The notes: a model not told the origin generated them from the letters alone. Counted from the stretch's first letter, positions 1 through 61,267 are shown. The stretch: DNA of 61,267 bases from an uncultured Candidatus Saccharibacteria bacterium (GCA_964462115.1 CAYWWA010000001.1:25795-87061); one strand, 5' to 3'. A program made the numbers and translations.

Positions 1-226
1 TTGCACATTGTTAAAATTAAACCAATCGTTTAGGCTGGGCGCCCAAACTGAACCGGTGACTTCAGCGGCAGATAAACTATTTACTATTAAAAATTGGAAG
101 CACAAAAAAAAGAAAGCGTATGAGGTGACTTTCTTGGTTGAAACTTTACCCATGTAACATATGCTAACACAGAAAAAAATAGAAAGAAAAAATTTTGTGT
201 ATATCTGTATAAAAAAGTATAAAAAA

Positions 227-1312
227 TTAAATTTTGAACTCTATCACGTCGCCATCTTTGACTACATATTCTTTACCTTCAGTGCGAATTTTACCATTTT
301 CACGAGCCTCACCAGCCAATAGGTCACTCCAGTAAACCACTTCAGCGCGAATAAATTTTTCTTTAAAGTCGTTATGAATCGCTGTCCCAGCCAGTGGCGC
401 CGTCCAACCATTCTCCACTGTCCAAGCGCGGGTTTCGTCGGTGCCAGTGGTAAAAAAAGTAATCAAGCCCAACAGCTCATAACTTTTTTTAATTAAGTCA
501 TCCACTCCATCATTTTTGGCCCCTAATTCAGCGCGGAACATTTCTTTTTCTTCACCTACTAAATCCTTTAATTCCTGTTCAATTCCAGCATCAACCACTA
601 CAAATTTAGAACCAGTCTCAATAAAAAAATTCATTAAATCTTGCCAACGACTATCTGCCAGTTCGTCAAGATTTTTGCCTCCAGATTTTTTATTTAAAAC
701 ATAGAGAAAACTTTTTAAGGTTATTAACCCCAAGCTCTTAATTACTTTTTTCTCCTCCTCATCCAGCCCGGCGGTGTGGGCCAGTTTTTCTTCTCTTAAC
801 ACGGACAATACTTTTACTAAAACTTCTTTTTCCTTAATGGCAATCTTATCTCCTCGCTTAACCTCCTTTTCCACATTGTTTAATCTTTTTTCCACCACCT
901 GAATATCAGCTAAAATTAATTCTAAATTTATTACCTCAATATCATCAAGTGGACTAACTTTTCCCGCAGTATGAATTATCTTATCGTCTTCAAAAATCCT
1001 GACCACTTCCGCCACTGCGTCTGTCTCTCTGATATTGGCCAAGAATTTATTACCTAAGCCTTCGCCCTCTGAGGCACCCTTTACCAACCCAGCAATATCA
1101 ACAAATTCAATCGCCGCTGGAATGGTCTTGGCTGATTTAGAAAAATCGGATAATTTTTGTAGTCGCTCATCAGGCACAGCGACCACCCCCACGCTCGGAT
1201 CAATGGTGCAAAATGGATAATTAGCGCACTCAACAGATTTTTTAGTCAGCGCATTAAAAAGTGTGGATTTTCCTACGTTGGGCAGACCGACAATCCCGAT
1301 TGATAATTTCAT
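227..1312 (-). CDS. ychF: Ribosome-binding ATPase YchF (Obg-family P-loop NTPase)
   Basis: 361-aa ORF with N-terminal P-loop [15 protein letters not shown] and a YchF-type C-terminal end ...[22 protein letters not shown] -10 box lies 6 nt upstream of the ATG. Confidence 0.95.
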
Positions 1313-5179: not shown

Positions 5180-5812
5180 TTATTTTTGCGCCTCTAAGAC
5201 TATTACTTCACCATTTTTGCCATCTAAGTCTTTAGGTTTAATTGTTAATTTCTCTATTTTTTCTGTCTTTTCAGCATCGCATTCTTTCAAAAAAGTCTTT
5301 AAGGCATCTTTATCTCCTACCTGACCATAGTGCAGAGGGATAATTATCTTTGCTTCTAACTTTACCGCCACCTTAGCAGCCTCCACCGCATTCAAAACTC
5401 CATCCCCACCAATCGGTACAAATAAAATATCCACATCACCTAAGCCAGATTTTACCTCTTGGGGCAACTCACCATCTAATAATCCTAAAAAGCATAAATT
5501 GATACCATCCACCGCTAAACTATAAATGGTATTAACTTTATTTTCTTCGTATTTGGTTTTGGATAAAAAACCGTGCACAAAATTGCCCATTATCTCATAC
5601 TCACCAGGGCCAGTAATTACAAAAGGATTTTTGTTGTTTCCACTGACCAACTCTACCCCATTAGTTTCGGGAGTGTTGGCTGAGACCAAAACCAAATCCG
5701 CTCCAAATCTTGAGCTGTTATATTTTGATTGTTTAGAGATGGGGTTAACGGCTAAAACAAAATCACCTACTTGAATTTTGATAAAATCTACACCGTAATT
5801 TGTTATAATCAT
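5180..5812 (-). CDS. MBL-fold (beta-lactamase-like) hydrolase family protein
   Basis: 210 aa. Overall resemblance to UPF0173/MBL-fold proteins (ITNYG...FIKI...LVLVS...ILFVPIGG...PLHYG). The canonical HxHxDH motif is not evident. Confidence 0.55.
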   Translation of the reverse strand: MIITNYGVDFIKIQVGDFVLAVNPISKQSKYNSSRFGADLVLVSANTPETNGVELVSGNNKNPFVITGPGEYEIMGNFVHGFLSKTKYEENKVNTIYSLAVDGINLCFLGLLDGELPQEVKSGLGDVDILFVPIGGDGVLNAVEAAKVAVKLEAKIIIPLHYGQVGDKDALKTFLKECDAEKTEKIEKLTIKPKDLDGKNGEVIVLEAQK

Positions 5813-5850
5813 GATAATAATATTAAGTTAATTTATACACTAATAAAAAA

Positions 5851-7953
5851 TTATACATCCAAATTCGCTAACTTAGCATTAGTTTGAATAAAGCTTTTAC
5901 GAGCTGGAACATCATTTCCCATCAACATATCAAATACCACATCTGCCTCGGCTGCATCATTAATTGAAACCTGTTTTAGAACTCGATTATCTGGATCAAG
6001 TGTAGTTTCCCACAACTCATCTGAGTTCATTTCTCCCAGACCTTTATATCGTTGGACATGCATTTTAGATGTTTTCTTTTCCTCTTTCTTTTTATCTTTT
6101 TTATCAGTTTTTTCTTCTTCGTTGACATCTGGTTCAGTGTTTTGCTCAGCATTTTCGGCATTGATATCCTGAACTTCTTCCAAGACTATCCCCTCTTTTT
6201 TGACAAACTCACCTTTTTCCTCTTCGGTATAAAAATAGAAAACTTCTTTACCTTTCTTAATTTTATAGAGAGGAGACTGGGCAATGTAAATATGTCCCTG
6301 TTCAACCAAAACTGGAAAATGACGATAGAACAAAGTTAACAATAAGGTGCGGATGTGCGCCCCGTCCACGTCGGCATCGGTCGCAATGATTATTTTATGA
6401 TATCGCAATTTACTAATATCAAAAGTATCACCCAAAGTAGTGCCAATAGCAATGACCAAAGATTTAATCGTATCCGAGGCTAACATCTTATCCAACCTAG
6501 CTCGCTCCACATTCAAAATTTTACCACGCAACGGCAACACCGCTTGAATTCTTCGGTCTCGCCCAGTTTTAGCTGTGCCGCCCGCTGAATCTCCCTCTAC
6601 AATAATTAGCTCTGTTTCTTCAGCTTTGTTACTTGAACAGTCAGCCAATTTACCAGGTAGAGTCATACCATCCAGAGCTCCTTTGCGCAAAATTGAATCT
6701 TTAGCAGCTTTAGCCGCTTTTCTGGCTCGTAGAGCTAAAATAGATTTATTGACAATTGATCTCGCGTCATCAGGGTGCTCCTCCAAGAAAGCAGAGAAAG
6801 CTTCACTGAAAGCATCGGAAACCATTTTGGTCGCTTCTACCGATCCCAGCTTGGCTTTAGTCTGTCCTTCAAATTGTATTTCTCGCAACTTCACCGAAAC
6901 TACCGCTGTTAAACCTTCCAACACATCATCACCAGTAAAGTTATCGTCTTTCTCTTTAAGGATTTCCGCTTTACGAGCATAGGAGTTAATCAAACGAGTA
7001 AGAGTAGTTTTAAATCCAGTAATATGGGTTCCTCCTTCGGGGGTGGAAATATTATTCGCAAAACCCACAATCCGAGCCGAGATATCATCGACGTATTGCA
7101 AAGCAATTTCTATCCCTTCTACTCCCTCAGCATCTTTCTTCTCAATATAAAAAACCTGTTTATGAATTGGTTTTTGGGAGGAGTTATAGAACTTAACCAA
7201 TGATAGCAAGCCGCCTTCAAAATAGAAGGTTTGAGATGGAGCATCAAAGACTGTATCAGCTAAATAATATGCTTTATTGGTATCAATTTTGACGGCACAG
7301 TTTCGTAAATCAATAATTGTAATTCGCAAACCTTTAACTAAATAAGCTTGCTGACGCATATGACCCACCACTCGATTAAAATCAAACTCTTGTTGGCCGA
7401 AAATATCTACATCAGGCTGAAACTCCACGATGGTGCCATGCTCTTCGGTCTTAGCAATTTTCTTAACATCGTTTTTCTTTTTACCTCGAGAATATTCCTG
7501 CATGTAAACCCCACCCTCTTTATGCACCAAGACTTTAGCAAATGATGACAGAGCATTAACCACCGAAGCTCCTACCCCGTGCAAACCACCAGATACCTTA
7601 TAGCCGCAGCCGCCAAATTTACCTCCGGCGTGCAAGGTGGTCATAATGGTTTCTAAGGCGGAGACCTTAGTCTGTTTATGAATATCCACGGGAATACCTC
7701 GCCCATTATCAACTACTCTAATATGATTGTCGGATAAAAAAGCGACTTCAATTCTGTCAGCAAAACCACCCATCGCCTCATCACGTGAGTTGTCAAAAAT
7801 TTCAGTAATTAAGTGATGAAAACCGTCTGGACCAGTTGTGCCAATATACATACCTGGTCGTTTTCGCACCGGCTCTAAACCTTCTAAAACCTGAATGGAA
7901 TCTGCTCCATAATTGTCTTTTTTAAGCTTTTTTTCGTCTTTCTCTTTGGACAT
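5851..7953 (-). CDS. gyrB: DNA gyrase subunit B
   Basis: 700 aa with YGADSIQVLEGLEPVRKRPGMYIG, a GHKL ATPase, Toprim EGDSAGG, and PLRGKILNV. A lysine/glutamate-rich insert sits near the C-terminus. Confidence 0.98.
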   Translation of the reverse strand: MSKEKDEKKLKKDNYGADSIQVLEGLEPVRKRPGMYIGTTGPDGFHHLITEIFDNSRDEAMGGFADRIEVAFLSDNHIRVVDNGRGIPVDIHKQTKVSALETIMTTLHAGGKFGGCGYKVSGGLHGVGASVVNALSSFAKVLVHKEGGVYMQEYSRGKKKNDVKKIAKTEEHGTIVEFQPDVDIFGQQEFDFNRVVGHMRQQAYLVKGLRITIIDLRNCAVKIDTNKAYYLADTVFDAPSQTFYFEGGLLSLVKFYNSSQKPIHKQVFYIEKKDAEGVEGIEIALQYVDDISARIVGFANNISTPEGGTHITGFKTTLTRLINSYARKAEILKEKDDNFTGDDVLEGLTAVVSVKLREIQFEGQTKAKLGSVEATKMVSDAFSEAFSAFLEEHPDDARSIVNKSILALRARKAAKAAKDSILRKGALDGMTLPGKLADCSSNKAEETELIIVEGDSAGGTAKTGRDRRIQAVLPLRGKILNVERARLDKMLASDTIKSLVIAIGTTLGDTFDISKLRYHKIIIATDADVDGAHIRTLLLTLFYRHFPVLVEQGHIYIAQSPLYKIKKGKEVFYFYTEEEKGEFVKKEGIVLEEVQDINAENAEQNTEPDVNEEEKTDKKDKKKEEKKTSKMHVQRYKGLGEMNSDELWETTLDPDNRVLKQVSINDAAEADVVFDMLMGNDVPARKSFIQTNAKLANLDV

Positions 7954-12258: not shown

Positions 12259-12750
12259 TTATTTTTTGATGGCCAAGGCAAAACCGCCGCCATCGTGCTT
12301 GGTCTGGTGGGAAAGATTTTTGAGACCTAAGAGTTTGTGTCCGTGGTTCCGACCCCAGCCCACCACTCCGCTGCCGACATCCATGGGGAGCTCTGTGCCC
12401 AGAGCCAACCAGTACCATTTGAGTTTGGTGACCATTTTTCCCTCTCTGTCGGGGTAAGTGAAGTCGCGTTCGGTTAGGTTTTGTACTTCACCTACCTTAT
12501 GCACGAAATAGAAGAGTTCGGCCATGTTGGCTGGACGATATCCTTGTCTATCCATTGCGTCTATAGTGGTGGACCAAGTAGGATAAACATCAGTACTAAA
12601 ATCTAAGTAATTATACTGAGACAAGTCTTCTTCTACACTAAGAGGAAACGCCTGCTTGGTGCCGGCCAGCAGAAATGGGCTGGTGTAGTCCAGATGGCCC
12701 AAATTTCTTATCATCTCAAGGACAGCATCCTCATTTGAAATGAGTATCAT
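12259..12750 (-). CDS. Hypothetical protein homologous to the C-terminal module of the AAA+ protein at 43598-45871
   Basis: 163 aa. QGYRPANMAELFYF...QNLTERDFTYPDREG...KLKWYW...GGGFALAIKK aligns with the AAA+ C-terminus. AGGAG SD lies 6 nt upstream of the ATG. Visibly GC-richer than its flanks. Confidence 0.75.
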   Translation of the reverse strand: MILISNEDAVLEMIRNLGHLDYTSPFLLAGTKQAFPLSVEEDLSQYNYLDFSTDVYPTWSTTIDAMDRQGYRPANMAELFYFVHKVGEVQNLTERDFTYPDREGKMVTKLKWYWLALGTELPMDVGSGVVGWGRNHGHKLLGLKNLSHQTKHDGGGFALAIKK

Positions 12751-32997: not shown

Positions 32998-33630
32998 TCA
33001 ACTGAAGCTTCCTCTATCAAGGAAGTTTTTCGTCGCCGTTATCACCACCTCATCCTCCAGCATGGAGAAATGATGGGATTTGACCAGTAAATAGTCATTT
33101 GCCCTTACCGCAAACGCACTATCGACTGACACTCGTCCATCATTCTTCTTGGGAAGAACAAGGTAGTGAAAAAATAAATCTATAAACTGGCTGCCAGTGC
33201 CAGCAATCGCGCCAACCTCAATCTCCCGAGGGAGTTGAGGGTGGCCAAAATTCAACACCAGCTGCTGGCCAGCCACCCCATACAGCTTTTTGTAGATGGG
33301 GCGGAGGAAGGGTGTTCGCAACACGAAGTTGGCTACCCGGCTCCCAAAGTTGGGAACCCCGAGCAATACCGCGCGAGCAATCTTTACCTCAGGATGCTGT
33401 TTCAACATCCACTTGAGTAGTAGCCCACCCATCGAGTGAACTACTACTCCGTAAATATCATTACCAGCAAATACCTTTTTATATAAATCATCGGCCATCT
33501 CTTGTATGGTGGTCGATGTGCTGTCGTAGTTATAATTTACGACAGTGTATTTATCAGACAGCCCGTTTGCAACAGGCTGCATCATATCGGAATTACAACG
33601 AATTCCGTGTATAACTACAACCTTTTTCAC
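32998..33630 (-). CDS. Alpha/beta-hydrolase (lipase/esterase-like)
   Basis: 210 aa with the nucleophile elbow VVHSMGG (GxSxG). GTG start preceded by a purine-rich SD-like tract. Visibly GC-richer than its neighbours. Confidence 0.75.
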   Translation of the reverse strand: MKKVVVIHGIRCNSDMMQPVANGLSDKYTVVNYNYDSTSTTIQEMADDLYKKVFAGNDIYGVVVHSMGGLLLKWMLKQHPEVKIARAVLLGVPNFGSRVANFVLRTPFLRPIYKKLYGVAGQQLVLNFGHPQLPREIEVGAIAGTGSQFIDLFFHYLVLPKKNDGRVSVDSAFAVRANDYLLVKSHHFSMLEDEVVITATKNFLDRGSFS

Positions 33631-41388: not shown

Positions 41389-42300
41389 TTATAAATTCTT
41401 CAGATTTTTTTGTAATATTTCCGCTAAAACTTTAGGCAAATCAGCTGCTGACTTAGCAAGAACCGCTCCCCCAGTTTCTTCAGGGGTTTTACCTTCTGGC
41501 AGCGCGGTCGGATTGACTTTATAGGTTTCAAGAGCTGAGGCGCCATCTTGGGTAATACCAACACCGATAACTACAATTCCCTGTTGTCTGATATTAGAAA
41601 CAATATTTTGCATATCGCCAATATAGTCCGCTTCGCCGTCTGTCATCACGATGATAATTTTCTTTAATTCACCAGTTTTAATTTTTTCTATAGTTTCGTG
41701 AGTAAACGAGTTATTCATTTTTTGCAATAAATTATTGTCGCCATTGGAAGAGTCTCGGCTGGTTTGAATAATTTTAGTAGCAGATTTAATACGGTCGGTT
41801 TCAGAAAAATCTTCGCTCATTGATTTTAATAAAGTGTCGCTACTATTACCAAAGAAGCGAAGAACTTCTGAACGAAAAGTCAATAGTTTATCCATATTTA
41901 TTTTTTCTTCTTCGGCAACATCAGCGAAGCGTTTGAGAGTTTCCATGAATAGGACAGCGGCTTTGAGTTGTTCCTGTGATTTCTCTCCTTCCATACTACC
42001 CGAGCCATCACAAACCAAAGAAATTTCCACTTCGCCAAATTGGTCAGCTTTTTTTTCCTTAATTTCAACGCTTTCCCAAACTTTAGGTTTAAAATTACCC
42101 GCCATCCCGCTCACTACTACCTGTGTCGGATCAACTAAATAATCACCTTCTTCTTCAGGATATTTCGGAGCAAACTTTTTAGCGGTGCGTTTGGAAATAA
42201 TTCGGCGGAGTAAATTCTCCATTTCATCAACCAAAAATTCATTAGTTTCAGGATTCTTAAGCTGATTTAATTGTTCAGCCAATTGACGATAATTTTGCAA
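41389..42300 (-). CDS. vWA-domain protein segment; the frame is open upstream to 42474 and is probably the C-terminal part of a frameshifted HExxH-vWA protein
   Basis: MIDAS motif LVCDGSGSM with a Rossmann-like IIIVMTDGEA. There is no ATG in the open frame upstream of the track's TTG. This is the -1 frame relative to ORF 42393-43478. Confidence 0.75.
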   Translation of the reverse strand: MQNYRQLAEQLNQLKNPETNEFLVDEMENLLRRIISKRTAKKFAPKYPEEEGDYLVDPTQVVVSGMAGNFKPKVWESVEIKEKKADQFGEVEISLVCDGSGSMEGEKSQEQLKAAVLFMETLKRFADVAEEEKINMDKLLTFRSEVLRFFGNSSDTLLKSMSEDFSETDRIKSATKIIQTSRDSSNGDNNLLQKMNNSFTHETIEKIKTGELKKIIIVMTDGEADYIGDMQNIVSNIRQQGIVVIGVGITQDGASALETYKVNPTALPEGKTPEETGGAVLAKSAADLPKVLAEILQKNLKNL

Positions 42301-42392
42301 TTCTCGTTTCTGAACTCCGAGTTTGTCGGCATATTGTTGGTCGGGGTCTTGCTGCTTAGCTGCCTCATCTTTAATAATTTTTTTGGCTTGGT

Positions 42393-43478
42393 CTAAGATG
42401 CTTTTTTCTTGTTCAGCTGTGATGGGTTTAGGAAATTTTTTGTCAAAAGCATCATAATCAGATTTAAATAATCGTTAGGATCTATCTCACCCAAGCCATC
42501 GGATGGGCCTTGGGTTGACTTAGGCTCACCTGACGATTTGTCTGATGAACTATTTTGATTTTGATCATCTTGACCCTGGCTTAGTTGCGACTTATCTTGT
42601 TCACCTGGTTGGTTTTCTGGCGGTTGATTATTTTGATCTCCATGATCGTCACCACTTTGTCCACTTGCATTTTCTGGTGGATTTTTTCTATCTTCAATAT
42701 CCTGTTCTTTTAATTTTTCCATTTCTGGCACGACAAATTTATCTTGCAATTTCCAACGCATTTCCATCGGCAAAGCTGTGCTGGTCGTTAGCTTAAATAA
42801 ATTTTTACCAGTCTTGGTTTTGGCCGACAAAACTCTATCCACCGCTTCGCGCACCTCAGGAGCCACCGTGCATTTTTTGTCAGGAAATTGTCCTTCAACT
42901 AAAAGAGTTTGAGAGAATTGAATGTGTCTCGGAGACTGAGTAAAGTCTAAACTTTGAAATAAATCTTTATCGTAGGTAGTGCGGCGCACAGTCTCAAAAC
43001 CCTGATGGATCTTTTCAGTGACAGCGTCATTTTGGCGATTATCAGACACACAATTATCAAGCGTGGCAAAAGCCCGATCTTTTTTCAGTCGTCCAAGATA
43101 TGTTTCGAAGTTAGCAATACCTTCTGGGGTTTTGAGAATATCCATCATTTCTTCTAAATGCCCAACTTCGTGGGCTACCGCGAAAACTGTCGCCTGCTCC
43201 CGTTCTTCTTTGGATAGTTTGCTTTCGGCATTTTGATAAAATCTTTCGCTAACACCGACTACACCCTTTTCTAAATCAACATAAAATGTGTCTTTTTTGG
43301 ATGGTTCAACTGTTATTTGGCTACCAGCCATCTGCTCAAAAACCGCACGATTTCTTTCAAAAAACTCCATCGTGGTCTGTTCAGCTTCAGCAGTCTTTAA
43401 TTTGGGTAGAATTTCCGGCTCATTTTTAGGACTAACTTTAGCTGAAGTTTTAATGGCTGGTTTTTCAAAGTTATTCAT
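42393..43478 (-). CDS. HExxH metallopeptidase-like protein (the 0-frame product, or the N-terminal part of the fusion)
   Basis: 361 aa with FAVAHEVGHLEEM (HExxH) and an acidic/Q-rich low-complexity region before the frameshift window. Confidence 0.7.
   Translation of the reverse strand: MNNFEKPAIKTSAKVSPKNEPEILPKLKTAEAEQTTMEFFERNRAVFEQMAGSQITVEPSKKDTFYVDLEKGVVGVSERFYQNAESKLSKEEREQATVFAVAHEVGHLEEMMDILKTPEGIANFETYLGRLKKDRAFATLDNCVSDNRQNDAVTEKIHQGFETVRRTTYDKDLFQSLDFTQSPRHIQFSQTLLVEGQFPDKKCTVAPEVREAVDRVLSAKTKTGKNLFKLTTSTALPMEMRWKLQDKFVVPEMEKLKEQDIEDRKNPPENASGQSGDDHGDQNNQPPENQPGEQDKSQLSQGQDDQNQNSSSDKSSGEPKSTQGPSDGLGEIDPNDYLNLIMMLLTKNFLNPSQLNKKKAS
42397..42468 (-). promoter_or_regulatory. Candidate -1 programmed ribosomal frameshift signal: slippery T_TTA_AAT, 8-nt spacer, 9-bp stem
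   Basis: Heptamer at 42462-42468 in register X_XXY_YYZ with the 0 frame. The stem arms are gatgctttt (42445-42453) and aaaagcatc (42397-42405). The 0-frame stop at 42393-42395 follows directly. Confidence 0.5.
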
Positions 43479-43597
43479 AATTTATTTGACTTTATTTTTA
43501 AAATTTTATTTTTCATAAACTTATTGTATAAGCACCCAACCACAAGCTCCGCATAATACCAAGTGTCCAAAGATCAAAGAAACTAAGATTTAAAGTT

Positions 43598-45871
43598 CTA
43601 ATTACGGACGGCAAGCCAAAACCCACCACCACTCCAGCCATCCGCCCCATAATCCAAGCCCAGCTTCCGCCCATCACCACCCCAATTCCAGTAACCAACC
43701 CAACGCGAAGAGCCAACCGACAACACCGAAGCGGGGTCAGCGCAAGGCCAAAACCATTTGTTTTTAGTGATTGAGTTTCCGTCTTTGTCAGTATAACTGT
43801 AATCACGGTGAGATAGGTTTTGAGCGGTTTCTTGGTCTTGGATGAAGGACAGGAGTTCAGCTAAGTTAGCTGGTCGGTAGCCTTGGTATTTCATAGCTGC
43901 TTCAGCTTGGTCTCGGGTGTCATATTGGTCGGTGCCGAATTTGTCAAAGTTGTATTTAGAGAAATCTTTCTCAATACTTTGTGGTAGGATTTGAGCGATA
44001 TTGTTCATAATATCTTCGTCAAGGTAATCTTGGGGATTGACGGCGTTAATTAGGGATTGGAATTGGTCGGGGGTGGAGATGATGGCAAAAAGTTCAGGGT
44101 TGGGCGGGTTGGTTTCAGCGGTGTCAGGAGTGTTTAGATCACCCAACTCTCCCGCCGCTTCAGCCGACACTGCTTGTTGACGTAATTGAAAAGGATCCAG
44201 ATTAGCCAAATCTTGAAGATTGAAATGTTCTAGCGCTTGGGATTTTTTAATATTTTCTGCTTGAAGTTGAGGTGTTTGAAAACCTGAGATGGTGTGAGGG
44301 TCTAAGCCTAAGCTAGACTCTGAGACAGCTTGGATCAAGCCTCTTTTGACTAAGACTTTAGCCGCTAAAGCGCGGTCAGCTTTGGTGTATTCTTTGAAAG
44401 TTAAGGAGGTGACTAGTTGTTTGTCTAAGAATTCCACAAAGGAAGACTGGTCAGTGTGAGTACGGTGACGCCAGAGGGTGATGATGTTGGCTAGAGTGCG
44501 TTGGTTCCAGACTAGTTTTTGGAGAGTGTCAATTTTTCCATTGACTTCCTGAGCTTGATAATCTTTGGCTTTGTCTGGACTAATGGTGCCTTGATAAAAC
44601 TCTTGAACGTCAGCGAAGGCTTTACATAATTGAGGCAGGGTGACGGCGAGATCATAGCGGGAGAATTCCAGGTTGCCTTGTTCGTCCATTAGGCGAATGA
44701 GAGCGGTATCGTAGGTTTCGTCTTGGGGGGAATAGTTGATTTCTAAGTTGTTTTGATCAAACTCGTTGGCCATTTCAGGGGGTAGATCTTGCCGTTCGGT
44801 GTTTTTGGCCGATTTAAGGTTGGCGGTGAAGATGAATTGGAAACCGGGAGCGATGGGAGTTTTGCCGTCACCCACAATATTGACTTCATCACCAGGTTTA
44901 GCGTTAAGCAAACCCTTAATCATCACCATCTGCTCTTTAGGTAAGGCGGTGAATTCGTCAAAGACGACAACCCTACCTTCCTTCATGGCAGTGGCTAATG
45001 GACCGTTTTTGAAGATGGTCTGCTGGGCGGAGATGACTCGTTTGGTCACGGTCTTAGTTTGACCAGTTAGGTCAGTGTCGGTAAAGCTGCGCTCTTCGTA
45101 AACTGGTTCAATACCCATGGCGCCCCAGATGTTGCTCTCTCGAGTCTGAGGATTGCAGTAGATGACTTCAGCTTCTTGACCAGTGAAGTGTTTAGCGGCA
45201 AATTTAGCTAAGGAGGTTTTCCCCGTGCCAGTGGCGCCATGGAGAAACATTGGTAAGCCGGAGATCAGGCGTTGACCAATTTCAGTTAGGTTGCGTTGAG
45301 TGGTGGGCATCATGGCGATGTGACCAGAGGCGTAGAGATCAGCTTTGTAGCTGGCTAACTCGGCGGCGCGAGTCAAGATGGGATGTTCAATTTGAGCGGT
45401 GGTTAATTGAGCTTGAAGTTGATCCAGTTGTTGATGATATTGCTCTAAGATCAACTTTTTAACTCTGGATTTGGGAGCTTTGGCTAAAGCTAGTTGACGG
45501 GCAAAGACCTCAGCGGTGAGCTTAGCTTGTTGAGTCAGAGTGGCGCGGAGCTTGAGATAGTCGGGTCCTAAGGTTTGCGCTAGGTAGTCTTCATCAATGG
45601 GCTGGTCAAATTTGTCTCGATCAGCGCGAACTTGCTCTTTGGCTTTGGTGATACTGCCGTAGTCGGCTACTTGGATCTGACGGTGTTTAGCGATGATTTC
45701 AGTTAGAGCTTGATGCAAAGCGGCTTTTTGGCTGGCTGAGATGGGGGAATGGTCTAACTCGCTTAGTTCTTGCTTGGCTTCATTTTTTTCTAAGTGGAGT
45801 TGGTGGAGGTTGGAGTCGGAAGTGGAAGCTTTAGCTATTTTAGCTTTAGTTCCTTGAGGAGAATGGTTCAT
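43598..45871 (-). CDS. AAA+ ATPase of the MoxR/AAA_5 type, with an N-terminal coiled-coil region and a novel C-terminal module
   Basis: 757 aa with Walker A HGATGTGKTS (residues 211-220), Walker B VVVFDEF, and FIFTANLK. The C-terminal ~125 aa are homologous to ORF 12259-12750. TGATATAAT-N6-ATG lies upstream. Confidence 0.8.
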   Translation of the reverse strand: MNHSPQGTKAKIAKASTSDSNLHQLHLEKNEAKQELSELDHSPISASQKAALHQALTEIIAKHRQIQVADYGSITKAKEQVRADRDKFDQPIDEDYLAQTLGPDYLKLRATLTQQAKLTAEVFARQLALAKAPKSRVKKLILEQYHQQLDQLQAQLTTAQIEHPILTRAAELASYKADLYASGHIAMMPTTQRNLTEIGQRLISGLPMFLHGATGTGKTSLAKFAAKHFTGQEAEVIYCNPQTRESNIWGAMGIEPVYEERSFTDTDLTGQTKTVTKRVISAQQTIFKNGPLATAMKEGRVVVFDEFTALPKEQMVMIKGLLNAKPGDEVNIVGDGKTPIAPGFQFIFTANLKSAKNTERQDLPPEMANEFDQNNLEINYSPQDETYDTALIRLMDEQGNLEFSRYDLAVTLPQLCKAFADVQEFYQGTISPDKAKDYQAQEVNGKIDTLQKLVWNQRTLANIITLWRHRTHTDQSSFVEFLDKQLVTSLTFKEYTKADRALAAKVLVKRGLIQAVSESSLGLDPHTISGFQTPQLQAENIKKSQALEHFNLQDLANLDPFQLRQQAVSAEAAGELGDLNTPDTAETNPPNPELFAIISTPDQFQSLINAVNPQDYLDEDIMNNIAQILPQSIEKDFSKYNFDKFGTDQYDTRDQAEAAMKYQGYRPANLAELLSFIQDQETAQNLSHRDYSYTDKDGNSITKNKWFWPCADPASVLSVGSSRWVGYWNWGGDGRKLGLDYGADGWSGGGFWLAVRN

Positions 45872-61022: not shown

Positions 61023-61095
61023 ATAAACGTTAGAAAAAAAGAAAAAAGAAAGCAAGTTTGTTGCTTTCTTTTAATTTTATTCTTTGTTCTGGCGC
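61023..61095. repeat. Repeat copy 1 (terminator-like hairpin gaaagcaa/ttgctttc plus the ...ttctggcgcc tail)
   Basis: Matches 61201-61267 except for one T/C difference and a 6-nt A-rich indel. Confidence 0.85.
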
Positions 61096-61200
61096 CTAGC
61101 TACTTGCCACAGATAAAATTTTTGTCGTCACAAAAATTTTTCCGCGACCCCGCCTCGTTTAATTTTTTTGCTAAAAAATTAAACTCCGGCCGAAAGTAGC

Positions 61201-61267
61201 TAAACGTCAGAAAAAAAAGAAAGCAAGTTTGTTGCTTTCTTTTAATTTTATTCTTTGTTCTGGCGCC
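61201..61267. repeat. Repeat copy 2 (truncated by the window end), 178 bp downstream of copy 1
   Basis: taaacgtcagaaaaaaaagaaagcaagtttgttgctttcttttaattttattctttgttctggcgcc. Confidence 0.85.

Follow-up and report, generated by a model that had tools for sequence, protein, structure and literature searches.

A MoxR-like ATPase with a DGR-type variable region and a frameshifted HExxH-vWA partner in a Candidatus Saccharibacteria genome

We describe here a two-gene cassette in a 61,267-nucleotide stretch of DNA from an uncultured Candidatus Saccharibacteria bacterium (the window), in which a MoxR-like AAA_5 ATPase is coupled to a partner containing an HExxH motif and a vWA domain. Comparison with relatives indicates that the couple is genuine, conserved and widespread in ultra-small bacteria (CPR/Patescibacteria), and that the C-terminal module of the ATPase corresponds to the variable region (VR) of a target of a diversity-generating retroelement (DGR), a mutagenic element that as a rule rewrites this lectin-like tail. 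The system is of a kind already known, here in a frozen state and possibly in decay. Our explanation as a whole, that of a CPR cassette from which the DGR is absent, whose VR is frozen and whose partner is frameshifted, and which would act by a sensor-to-effector mechanism, is on balance probable.

Results

The cassette is encoded on the minus strand, and consists of the ATPase gene (43598..45871, 757 aa), a 119-nt spacer (43479..43597), a 361-residue HExxH ORF that corresponds to the N-terminal half of the partner (42393..43478), and the C-terminal half of the partner, composed of a linker and the vWA domain (open frame 41389..42474). The vWA domain is read in the −1 frame with respect to the HExxH ORF, with an overlap of 82 nt (42393-42474) between the two frames; the first canonical start in the vWA frame is a TTG at position 42300, giving an ORF spanning 41389-42300, and the frame stays open up to 42474. 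A first-pass annotation had listed the 757-residue AAA_5 ATPase, the 119-nt spacer, the HExxH ORF and the −1-frame vWA ORF, and all of these sequence features are present. The neighbors of the cassette are housekeeping genes (gyrA/B, leuS, and secA) with no obvious defence island, and PADLOC returned no defence-family match for the partner and only marginal matches for the ATPase.

The ATPase is organized as a conserved helical N-terminus (aa 1 to ~200), an AAA+ core, a helical middle segment extending to ~aa 560, a variable linker, and a lectin-like C-terminus. The core (44804..45250, aa 208-356) is delimited by homolog alignment and by a Pfam AAA_5 (PF07728) match with E=2.1e-15 and 57.4 bits (cutoff 22), and the homologs score likewise. 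It contains the Walker A motif GATGTGKTS (45212-45238, aa 212-220), the Walker B motif VVVFDEF (44951-44971, aa 301-307), and the sensor-1 region FIFTANLK (44813-44836, aa 346-353), together with a 27-aa insertion (45023-45103, aa 257-283) that is missing from 15 aligned homologs. There are 230 ATPase homologs, all of them CPR proteins of 720-860 aa, and all strong homologs are from Patescibacteria MAGs. The Walker A/B and TANLKS motifs are invariant in the homolog alignment, and in a set of 120 homologs Walker A is conserved in 120 and Walker B in 119. In the PDB the nearest relatives are NorQ and CobS for the ATPase and CobT for the partner, all of these being very weak matches (at best E 2e-5, obtained with a profile); the top NCBIfam match is GvpN, and bpMoxR (PF20030) scores 24-27 bits on the ATPase homologs, below its 27-bit cutoff. 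A 19-residue Kyte-Doolittle scan shows no TM or signal segments in the window proteins (score ≤1.03), from which both the ATPase and its partner are predicted to be cytoplasmic, and scores are below 1.6 in 118/120 ATPase and 81/84 partner homologs.

The HExxH ORF contains a helical zincin-like domain (aa ~30-270, minus strand) followed by a low-complexity acidic/Q-rich linker. The motif HEVGHLEE is at 43149-43172 (aa 103-110), with H103, E104, H107, and E110 invariant in 47 sequences and HExxH present in 83 of the 84 partner homologs. The domain is modeled with a pLDDT >90 and its top Foldseek matches are minigluzincins (selecase and abylysin), although these are weak (E 0.5-2); a PDB profile match to MJ1213 has E=0.4, and the only Pfam match is a sub-threshold one to Zn_peptidase (E=0.006). 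The vWA ORF is recognized by Pfam VWA (E=1.4e-11, 45.3 bits, cutoff 23.8), has profile matches to integrin I-domains, and is colinear with intact homologs. Its MIDAS DxSxS motif, DGSGSM (41992-42009), is conserved in 84/84 homologs, and a TDG containing a MIDAS Asp is located at 41626-41646. At the MIDAS Thr position most homologs have STTD, the window has SNGD, and its nearest relatives, P0121 and P0122, have DNNE. The partner had been likened to the DUF2201_N/DUF2201 architecture, which we did not recover: at an E limit of 1 neither DUF2201_N (PF13203) nor DUF2201 (PF09967) matches a protein of the window, and at a limit of 0.01 neither matches the homologs P0122 or P0129. Of the Pfam families named in the first-pass annotation, AAA_5 and VWA were found above cutoff and DUF2201_N and DUF2201 were not.

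Conservation of gene order was examined in 21 GTDB Patescibacteria loci that have the whole ATPase and sufficient flanking sequence. All 21 of these informative loci carry the HExxH-vWA partner, at a median distance of ~1.6 kb or immediately upstream of the ATPase, and a DGR (RT and Avd) is present in 16 of them. Two gene orders are usual, ATPase(VR)-TR-Avd-RT-partner and partner-ATPase(VR)-TR-Avd-RT (TR, template repeat), such that TR-Avd-RT occupies the position of the spacer in most relatives, whereas in the window the ATPase abuts the partner. Both genes are also found together on many short contigs, and ORF clustering around 61 loci yields ATPase, partner, RT, and Avd as the only recurrent genes, with no third component (VMAP or iSTAND). 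We give practically no credence to the idea that an AAA ATPase and an unrelated vWA gene lie side by side by chance, for which nothing speaks other than their differing codon usage in the window; it is refuted by the synteny data, because the partner accompanies the ATPase in every informative locus. The MoxR/AAA_5-vWA couple that had been proposed for this DNA is thus upheld by its domain matches (AAA_5 E=2e-15) and by neighborhood, an HExxH-vWA protein accompanying the ATPase throughout the sample.

The extra C-terminal module previously noted in the ATPase is real, and corresponds to a domain of aa 590-757 (43601..44104, minus strand) modeled with a pLDDT of 85.6. A lectin-like fold is also supported, though weakly, in that most of the top PDB matches with Foldseek are C-type lectin CRDs, albeit weak ones (E 0.04-1, TM 0.3-0.4), and a poxvirus CTL is among the BFVD matches; there is no Pfam match to this domain. 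The subtype is rare, with seven representative clusters among 1.84 billion proteins.

The last 43 codons of the gene (43601..43729, minus strand; aa 715-757, SVLSVGSS...GFWLAVRN) are equivalent to a VR. The ATPase genes of homologs adjoin bAvd and RVT_1 and end in VRs of which a TR copy exists, the TR/VR mismatches falling almost exclusively at TR adenines. In the closest relatives (L078 and L079), which have TR-Avd-RT directly downstream, the corresponding stretch is a genuine VR: 22 of 23 and 18 of 18 mismatches, respectively, fall at TR adenines. The window VR is 9.3% A and 45% G, and along the ATPase gene the A fraction drops from ~0.31 in the body to 0.14 in this stretch; the A contents of the relatives' TRs and VRs are 26-29% and 12%, respectively. 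It is changed at 19 of the 29 positions that are A in the TRs of both relatives (66%) but at only 15 of 64 conserved non-A positions (23%; Fisher p=2e-4 to 2e-3), and the scaffold residues are retained. By these sequence criteria the C-terminal module is the variable region of a DGR target, which accounts for what had been described as an unusual accessory domain. We also note that the first-pass annotation did not identify the module as a DGR variable region, a target class reported for CPR (PMC10907252; PMC5758913).

The VR is an orphan: there is no TR matching it within the window, the spacer (43479-43597) has no significant TR remnant, tblastn with the relatives' RT and Avd finds neither in the window (nothing below E=2), and a degenerate TR pattern searched in genome and metagenome contig collections gave no TR for this VR. 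Short CTTTGR-type repeats in the spacer are common to the window and its relatives in a post-stop alignment. With the DGR absent from the window, the VR is most simply the frozen outcome of earlier adenine mutagenesis. The exception would be a DGR acting in trans from another part of the genome, which is possible given that the window covers 61 kb of an 89.9-kb contig. The nearest DGR-less relative (L076) has a truncated 41-nt TR remnant in its spacer, with 9/9 mismatches at A, indicating that DGR deletion yields the gene order seen in the window.

The ATPase gene differs in composition from the other 47 ORFs of the window, and the earlier suggestion that it is GC-richer than its flanks and foreign is substantiated by its GC content (0.473 versus 0.368±0.038), and agrees with its codon usage: GC3 is 0.479 versus 0.312±0.06, C3 is 0.35 versus 0.144±0.046, and coding-strand GC skew is −0.20 versus +0.14±0.09. 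The partner gene is unlike the ATPase gene in having host-like codon usage. In 36 other genomes the ATPase composition fits that of the host, and the foreign usage is peculiar to the window copy. It is common to a 163-residue lectin-only ORF (12259..12750, minus strand) with a GC content of 0.476 and 4-fold C of 0.44, which is a paralog of the ATPase C-terminal domain and has 38% identity to P0206 (E=8e-23). From their codon usage, the ATPase gene and the lectin-only ORF were probably acquired recently. The lectin-only ORF resembles the short CLec-only second targets seen at DGR loci.

The two halves of the partner meet at 42462..42474 (minus strand), where homology passes from DPND in frame 0 to LFKSDY in frame −1, with base 42471 shared. 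In the homolog alignment the frame change falls exactly where one base is missing from a T run. Each of the 84 partner homologs is a single ORF of ~600-706 aa, with none (0/84) split at the window's site; at one other locus (L045) the partner is also split. The split had been attributed to a recoding signal, and the possibility to consider is a programmed −1 ribosomal frameshift at T_TTA_AAT (42462-42468, minus strand) that sets the ratio of protease-only to full-length product. This canonical X_XXY_YYZ heptamer does lie within the 82-nt overlap, 3 nt past the frame switch in homology, and is followed by a second heptamer, A_AAA_AAT. However, the intact homologs speak against it, slippage would give YLN instead of the conserved LFK with loss of a nearly invariant Phe, the heptamer is itself made by the deletion, and such heptamers arise easily in AT-rich sequence. 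The downstream fold is also weak (−10.1 kcal/mol, z=−1.69), with 17 of 200 shuffles as good. We therefore regard programmed frameshifting as very improbable; as judged from the alignment, the split maps to a 1-nt deletion and not to an evolved recoding signal. It could be an assembly error.

A rather unlikely but more serious alternative to our favored explanation is that the locus is a relic, in which the cassette decays after DGR loss, the partner has been inactivated by the frameshift, and the orphan ATPase is heading to loss. The frameshift against a background of 84 intact homologs, the absence of a DGR within 61 kb, and the second split partner at L045 are all in keeping with this. But the ATPase ORF is unbroken, with every family-invariant residue in place, both partner halves are free of further stops and likewise retain all invariant residues, five other DGR-less loci retain an intact partner, and the ATPase seems recently acquired and not old and decaying. 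An intact ATPase and otherwise intact partner halves imply a lesion that arose very recently, is tolerated, or is an artefact.

Discussion

The obligate association with a protease-vWA partner suggests a sensor/effector system of the MoxR-vWA type, and a plausible mechanism can be proposed by analogy with MoxR-vWA couples and with conflict systems linked to DGRs. The hypervariable lectin domain would bind an intracellular ligand, for example a protein of a phage or other invader, and the bound ligand would gate the ATPase oligomer. The ATPase might then remodel the vWA partner via the MIDAS site, and this remodeling could free or activate the metallopeptidase as the effector. In the genome represented by the window, the effector arm would be compromised, made as two pieces, or produced by rare slippage.

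A more specific form of this mechanism, which we put forward tentatively and consider possible but somewhat doubtful, is a two-protein cytoplasmic antigen receptor in which a DGR-rewritten lectin on a MoxR-like ATPase senses invaders and licenses a metallopeptidase-vWA effector. If so, the commonest CPR DGR target would serve intracellular immunity and not the host attachment that is usually assumed. The window would then capture a state in which the diversifier is lost and receptor specificity is fixed, the receptor and its lectin-only paralog have been recently imported by horizontal transfer, and the resident effector gene beside the receptor is freshly frameshifted.

The cassette could instead have a role outside of conflict, either as a MoxR-vWA chaperone or maturation machine comparable to NorQ-NorD, CbbQ-CbbO or CobS-CobT, or as a host-interaction factor that tracks the variable molecules of an episymbiont's host. 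The relationships to NorQ, CobS, and CobT, the GvpN match, and the chromosomal housekeeping neighborhood point this way, as does the ascription of CPR DGRs to host interaction in reviews (PMC8632793). A hypermutated substrate-binding domain is nonetheless hard to square with a fixed housekeeping client, a surface adhesin is disfavored by the lack of signal peptides and TM segments throughout the family, and fusion of a conserved HExxH peptidase to the vWA suggests an effector instead of a metal-insertion adaptor. We thus find a non-conflict role unlikely, and continue to favor a sensor-to-effector cassette with a frozen VR.

According to PMC10907252, citing Paul et al. 2017 (Nat Microbiol), no DGR target is commoner in CPR than CLec fused to an AAA ATPase, and the ATPase of these fusions has been proposed to be a signal transducer (PMC10907252); 'UVR4/Midasin-domain' DGR targets were described by Wu et al. 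2018 (PMC5758913). As such fusions are already described, the window locus belongs to a known class, within which it lacks a DGR and carries a frameshift. It shares with the CPR CLec-AAA targets the family, the AAA_5 core, and the C-terminal VR, and differs from them in having no DGR in 61 kb, no TR remnant, and foreign codon usage. The available portions of the literature on CPR AAA-CLec targets (PMC10907252, PMC5758913) make no mention of the obligate HExxH-vWA partner.

MoxR-vWA conflict systems coupled to DGRs are known, and a metallopeptidase effector on the vWA protein is rare among them (Kaur et al. 2020, PMC7159879); the DGR-associated VMAP/iSTAND ternary systems are those of multicellular bacteria (PMC7159879; Doré et al. 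2024, PMC10907252). Like the CPR cassette, the ternary systems combine a MoxR-class ATPase with a vWA protein, and both feature a lectin/FGS domain diversified by a DGR and an effector of the peptidase type. However, the variable lectin is on the vWA protein in the described DGR-linked systems and on the ATPase in the CPR cassette, the third component (VMAP/iSTAND) of the ternary systems is not part of the cassette, and the hosts are ultra-small CPR bacteria and not multicellular ones. CPR DGR RTs are also reported to form a separate clade (PMC10907252).

The same genetic coupling of an AAA_5-type ATPase with a MIDAS vWA protein is seen in NorQ-NorD, CbbQ-CbbO, RavA-ViaA, and CobS-CobT, although the window ATPase is about three times longer than the classical MoxR-vWA ATPases, adding a 200-aa helical N-terminus and a hypervariable C-terminus, and the HExxH domain sets the CPR partner apart from these chaperone pairs. 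DUF2201_N with DUF2201 follows the same general plan, in which a metallopeptidase-like domain precedes a vWA-like one and the protein is paired with a MoxR ATPase, but the window partner is not a member by sequence. The minigluzincins (selecase MJ1213, abylysin, and jannalysin) are the top fold matches to the HExxH helix and core, although not significantly so (E 0.4-2), and at ~110 aa they are much smaller than the mostly helical ~240-aa HExxH domain. As for the VR, Mtd of Bordetella phage, TvpA of Treponema, and the archaeal AvpA (PMC5006420) likewise have a C-terminal VR of ~40 codons, and are similar in their AAY-type template codons, lectin-like scaffold, ligand-binding face, and terminal G-F-x-L-A-V-R-like strand. 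Their structures are not among the Foldseek matches of the window domain, which are to animal C-type lectin CRDs at E≥0.04.

Results

Three ORFs lie head to tail on the reverse strand. The first (43598-45871, -) encodes a 757-residue ATPase in which Pfam recovers AAA_5 above threshold (E=2e-15), and a 119-nt spacer separates it from a 361-residue ORF (42393-43478, -) with the HExxH motif HEVGH. The third lies in frame -1 relative to the HExxH ORF, spans 41389-42300 (-) from a TTG start within a frame that is open up to 42474, and carries an above-threshold VWA domain (E=1.4e-11). Every motif quoted in the first-pass annotation is present in the window. The HExxH ORF has only a sub-threshold Pfam match, to Zn_peptidase, and the DUF2201_N/DUF2201 architecture previously suggested for the partner must be set aside, as neither model was recovered by Pfam with the window proteins or with their homologs. 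PADLOC, NCBIfam and PHROGs returned only generic AAA matches for the three proteins (GvpN, E=3e-7; a 'porphyrin biosynthesis'/CobS-like PHROG; mad8, E=1e-4). The AAA core also contains, between Walker A and Walker B, a 27-residue insertion (VYEERSFTDTDLTGQTKTVTKRVISAQ; 45023-45103, -; residues 257-283) that is missing in all 15 aligned homologs.

Homologs of the ATPase number more than 200 and are 720-860 residues long, and those that are named are all from Patescibacteria/CPR. In two homologs, bAvd and RVT_1 genes are situated directly 3' of the ATPase gene, whose 3' end is repeated 470-510 nt downstream, with mismatches nearly all at adenines of the downstream copy. Such a bias towards adenines marks a diversity-generating retroelement (DGR), in which a variable region (VR) is rewritten from a template repeat (TR), and the ATPase 3' end is thus a DGR VR in those relatives. 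The ATPases of the three loci nearest to the window (L076, L078, and L079) are 41-42% identical to the window ATPase and share its C-terminal subtype. L078 and L079 have Avd and reverse transcriptase (RT) genes downstream, and their TR/VR mismatches fall at TR adenines in 22/23 and 18/18 cases respectively. At L076 the ATPase is followed directly by an intact partner gene, as in the window, and the 307-nt spacer contains a 41-nt truncated TR remnant (2939-2979) for which 9/9 mismatches to the VR are at remnant adenines. This remnant is direct evidence that Avd and RT have been deleted from between the two L076 genes.

Short CTTTGR/ACTTGG-type repeats are present immediately 3' of the ATPase stop (43530-43597, -), with matching repeats at L076:2794-2880, L078:2357-2420, and L079:2347-2410. 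The window and these three relatives have them in common although their proteins are only ~42% identical, and the repeats might act in DGR target recognition or in regulation. Many related loci also have additional lectin-only or lectin-tailed ORFs with the C-terminal domain of the ATPase (L003:12231-13082, L005:2184-3044, and others), and some of these are second VRs of the same TR, the L003 copy being 88% identical to VR1.

The last 43 codons of the window ATPase (43601-43729, -) align codon for codon with the VRs of these nearest relatives, and retain the scaffold residues SVLSVG, V, W, L.L, W, and GF.LAVRN. The composition of this VR is 9.3% A and 45% G, where the TRs of the relatives have 26-29% A; it is changed at 19 of the 29 positions that have adenine in both relatives' TRs, versus 15 of 64 conserved non-adenine positions, and the share of A, ~0.31 in the ATPase gene body, is 0.14 across the final 170 nt. 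The structure model of residues 590-757 is confident (pLDDT 85.6); searched against the PDB and also BFVD, it is matched best in the PDB by C-type lectin domains, though at E values no lower than 0.04. Because these matches are weak, the lectin-fold assignment rests mainly on homology to proven VRs. The lectin-like domain noticed earlier is upheld, and its description as an unusual accessory domain gives way to a known explanation, that of a DGR VR. The domain subtype is rare, with seven representative clusters among 1.84 billion proteins.

No TR was found within the 61-kb window with a whole-window repeat finder, with blastn of the VR, or with a degenerate pattern in which A is allowed at every non-A VR base, and the same pattern found nothing in the genome_contigs or metagenome_contigs collections. 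No RT or Avd was detected in the window by tblastn, and, unlike at L076, no TR remnant was found in the 119-nt spacer.

We scanned one genome for each GTDB species and obtained 61 strong family loci, essentially all in Patescibacteria MAGs, in which cassettes were called by profiles for ATPase, partner, RT, and Avd and by a TR/VR detector. The gene order is either ATPase(VR)-TR-Avd(antisense)-RT-partner or partner-ATPase(VR)-TR-Avd-RT. Twenty-one loci are informative, having a complete ATPase and flanks of no less than 4.5 kb on the downstream and 2.2 kb on the upstream side. All 21 contain the partner and 16 contain a DGR, the remaining five being DGR-less pairs like that of the window. The co-occurrence of ATPase and partner is obligate, and the MoxR-vWA couple proposed at first is borne out. 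No third conserved gene was found around the family loci, and a phage origin is rejected, as a search of IMG/VR viral contigs gave no member of the family. Two MAGs labelled 'uncultured Gammaproteobacteria' and 'Bdellovibrionales' (loci L008 and L051) have a full Patescibacteria-type cassette, and these are probably mislabelled or contaminated bins and not a wider distribution. Walker A is conserved in 120/120 ATPases and Walker B in 119/120, HExxH in 83/84 partners and DxSxS in 84/84. TM-like segments are lacking in 118 of the 120 ATPases, 81 of the 84 partners, and the window proteins, and both proteins are cytoplasmic.

The conceptual fusion of the HExxH and vWA ORFs has 84 homologs, all of them single ORFs of ~600-706 residues, most of which cover 95-100% of the fusion in a colinear alignment. 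The family consensus DPNx-[ILV]F... is read in the window as DPND in frame 0 and LFKSDY in frame -1, with base 42471 common to both readings (site 42462-42474, -), and the frame change corresponds to a single base missing from a T run. The first-pass annotation proposed that a recoding signal splits the partner, and a slippery T_TTA_AAT is indeed located 3 nt beyond the frame change, where it was created by the deletion. However, programmed -1 frameshifting is rejected, because none of the 84 homologs is split there, slippage would yield YLN in place of the conserved LFK, and the RNA downstream has no remarkable fold (z=-1.69). For these reasons the split is most likely a frameshift mutation of recent origin, or else an assembly error at this one site, and not evolved recoding. 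An indel-riddled assembly is unlikely, because other long genes of the window, among them those for GyrA, GyrB, SecA, LeuRS, and RNase R, are unbroken. Both partner halves retain every invariant residue, including H103/E104/H107/E110 and DxSxS.

The partner of the related locus L045 (approximately 5547-7300), which has a DGR, is also split, into ORFs of 141 and 428 residues, so the window is not alone in having a broken partner. The HExxH domain (residues ~30-270) is modelled as helical with pLDDT >90, and its only structural relatives are minigluzincins, at a weak level. At the position of the MIDAS threonine (41800-41850, -) most partners have STTD, the window has SNGD, and its nearest partner homologs P0121 and P0122 have DNNE; the metal site of this subclade may be altered.

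The ATPase gene is GC-richer than its flanks, as had been noticed earlier, and of the window's 48 ORFs it is one that departs strongly from the rest in GC3, C3, and coding-strand skew. Its pyrimidine-ending two-fold codons have a C-ending share of 0.62 versus 0.23 in the rest of the window, its four-fold sites are 0.44 C and 0.08 G, and its coding-strand GC skew is -0.25; the gene body (43778-45871, -) is extremely strand-asymmetric, with C3 0.37 versus G3 0.11. In the protein, Ala, Gln, Pro, Thr, and His are over-represented and Glu and Lys under-represented, and the HExxH and vWA ORFs have host-like codon usage. A composition intrinsic to the family is rejected as the cause, as the ATPase matches its host in 36 other genomes and is host-like in the three nearest relatives too, and the anomaly is thus specific to the window copy. 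It is best explained by recent horizontal acquisition, and the codon usage supports the acquisition suggested at first. Horizontal transfer accounts for the foreignness of the ATPase, but not for the excess of C over G, and such strand asymmetry is absent from the other family members examined (about 50).

A stand-alone lectin-only ORF of 163 residues (12259-12750, -) is a paralog of the ATPase C-terminal domain (38% identity) and one of the seven representative clusters of the subtype. It has ATPase-like foreign codon usage (GC 0.476, four-fold C 0.44), lacks both a Pfam match and a DGR in its vicinity, and resembles an orphan 'short CLec-only' DGR target. An alpha/beta-hydrolase-like ORF of 210 residues (32998-33630, -; GC 0.466, GC3 0.52) is also a compositional outlier, with a bias unlike that of the ATPase in that G3 and C3 are both raised. 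A perfect 55-nt direct repeat (61042-61096 and 61213-61267, +; 171 nt apart) occupies the very end of the window.

Discussion

The locus belongs to a known family of CPR DGR targets, of which it is a frameshifted member without a DGR; the parts are identified and obligately co-occur, and in relatives the ATPase C-terminus is targeted by DGRs. The first interpretation stands for the MoxR-vWA couple, the lectin-like domain, and the acquisition, but it over-read the frameshift and missed the DGR connection. The message of the window itself is more modest, with the accessory domain already explained and the 'recoding' most likely a simple frameshift, and the part worth pursuing is that, at the level of the family, the target is linked to a cytoplasmic protease-vWA partner that is obligate.

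Established MoxR-vWA pairs include NorQ-NorD, CbbQ-CbbO, RavA-ViaA, and CobS-CobT. From the biology of such pairs and from DGR-linked MoxR-vWA conflict systems (Kaur et al. 2020, PMC7159879; Doré et al. 2024, PMC10907252), we infer that the variable lectin domain would bind an intracellular ligand, that the ATPase would transduce the ligand signal, and that the vWA-tethered metallopeptidase would be the output.

In CPR bacteria, most reverse transcriptases belong to DGRs (PMC8632793), and the commonest CPR DGR target is an AAA-ATPase-lectin fusion (PMC10907252); the CPR targets listed by Wu et al. 2018 include some that have a Midasin-type AAA domain (PMC5758913). The vWA partner is mentioned in neither PMC10907252 nor PMC5758913. 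Our analysis adds that this known target is cytoplasmic, always paired with a conserved HExxH-vWA protein, and able to persist without its DGR. It offers a concrete, testable two-component model, in which a sensor ATPase would act with a protease-vWA effector, and links the DGRs of CPR bacteria with the MoxR-vWA conflict systems found in larger bacteria. The described ternary MoxR-vWA systems have a third component, whereas the CPR cassette has none, and they carry the lectin on the vWA protein, whereas in the CPR cassette it is on the ATPase.
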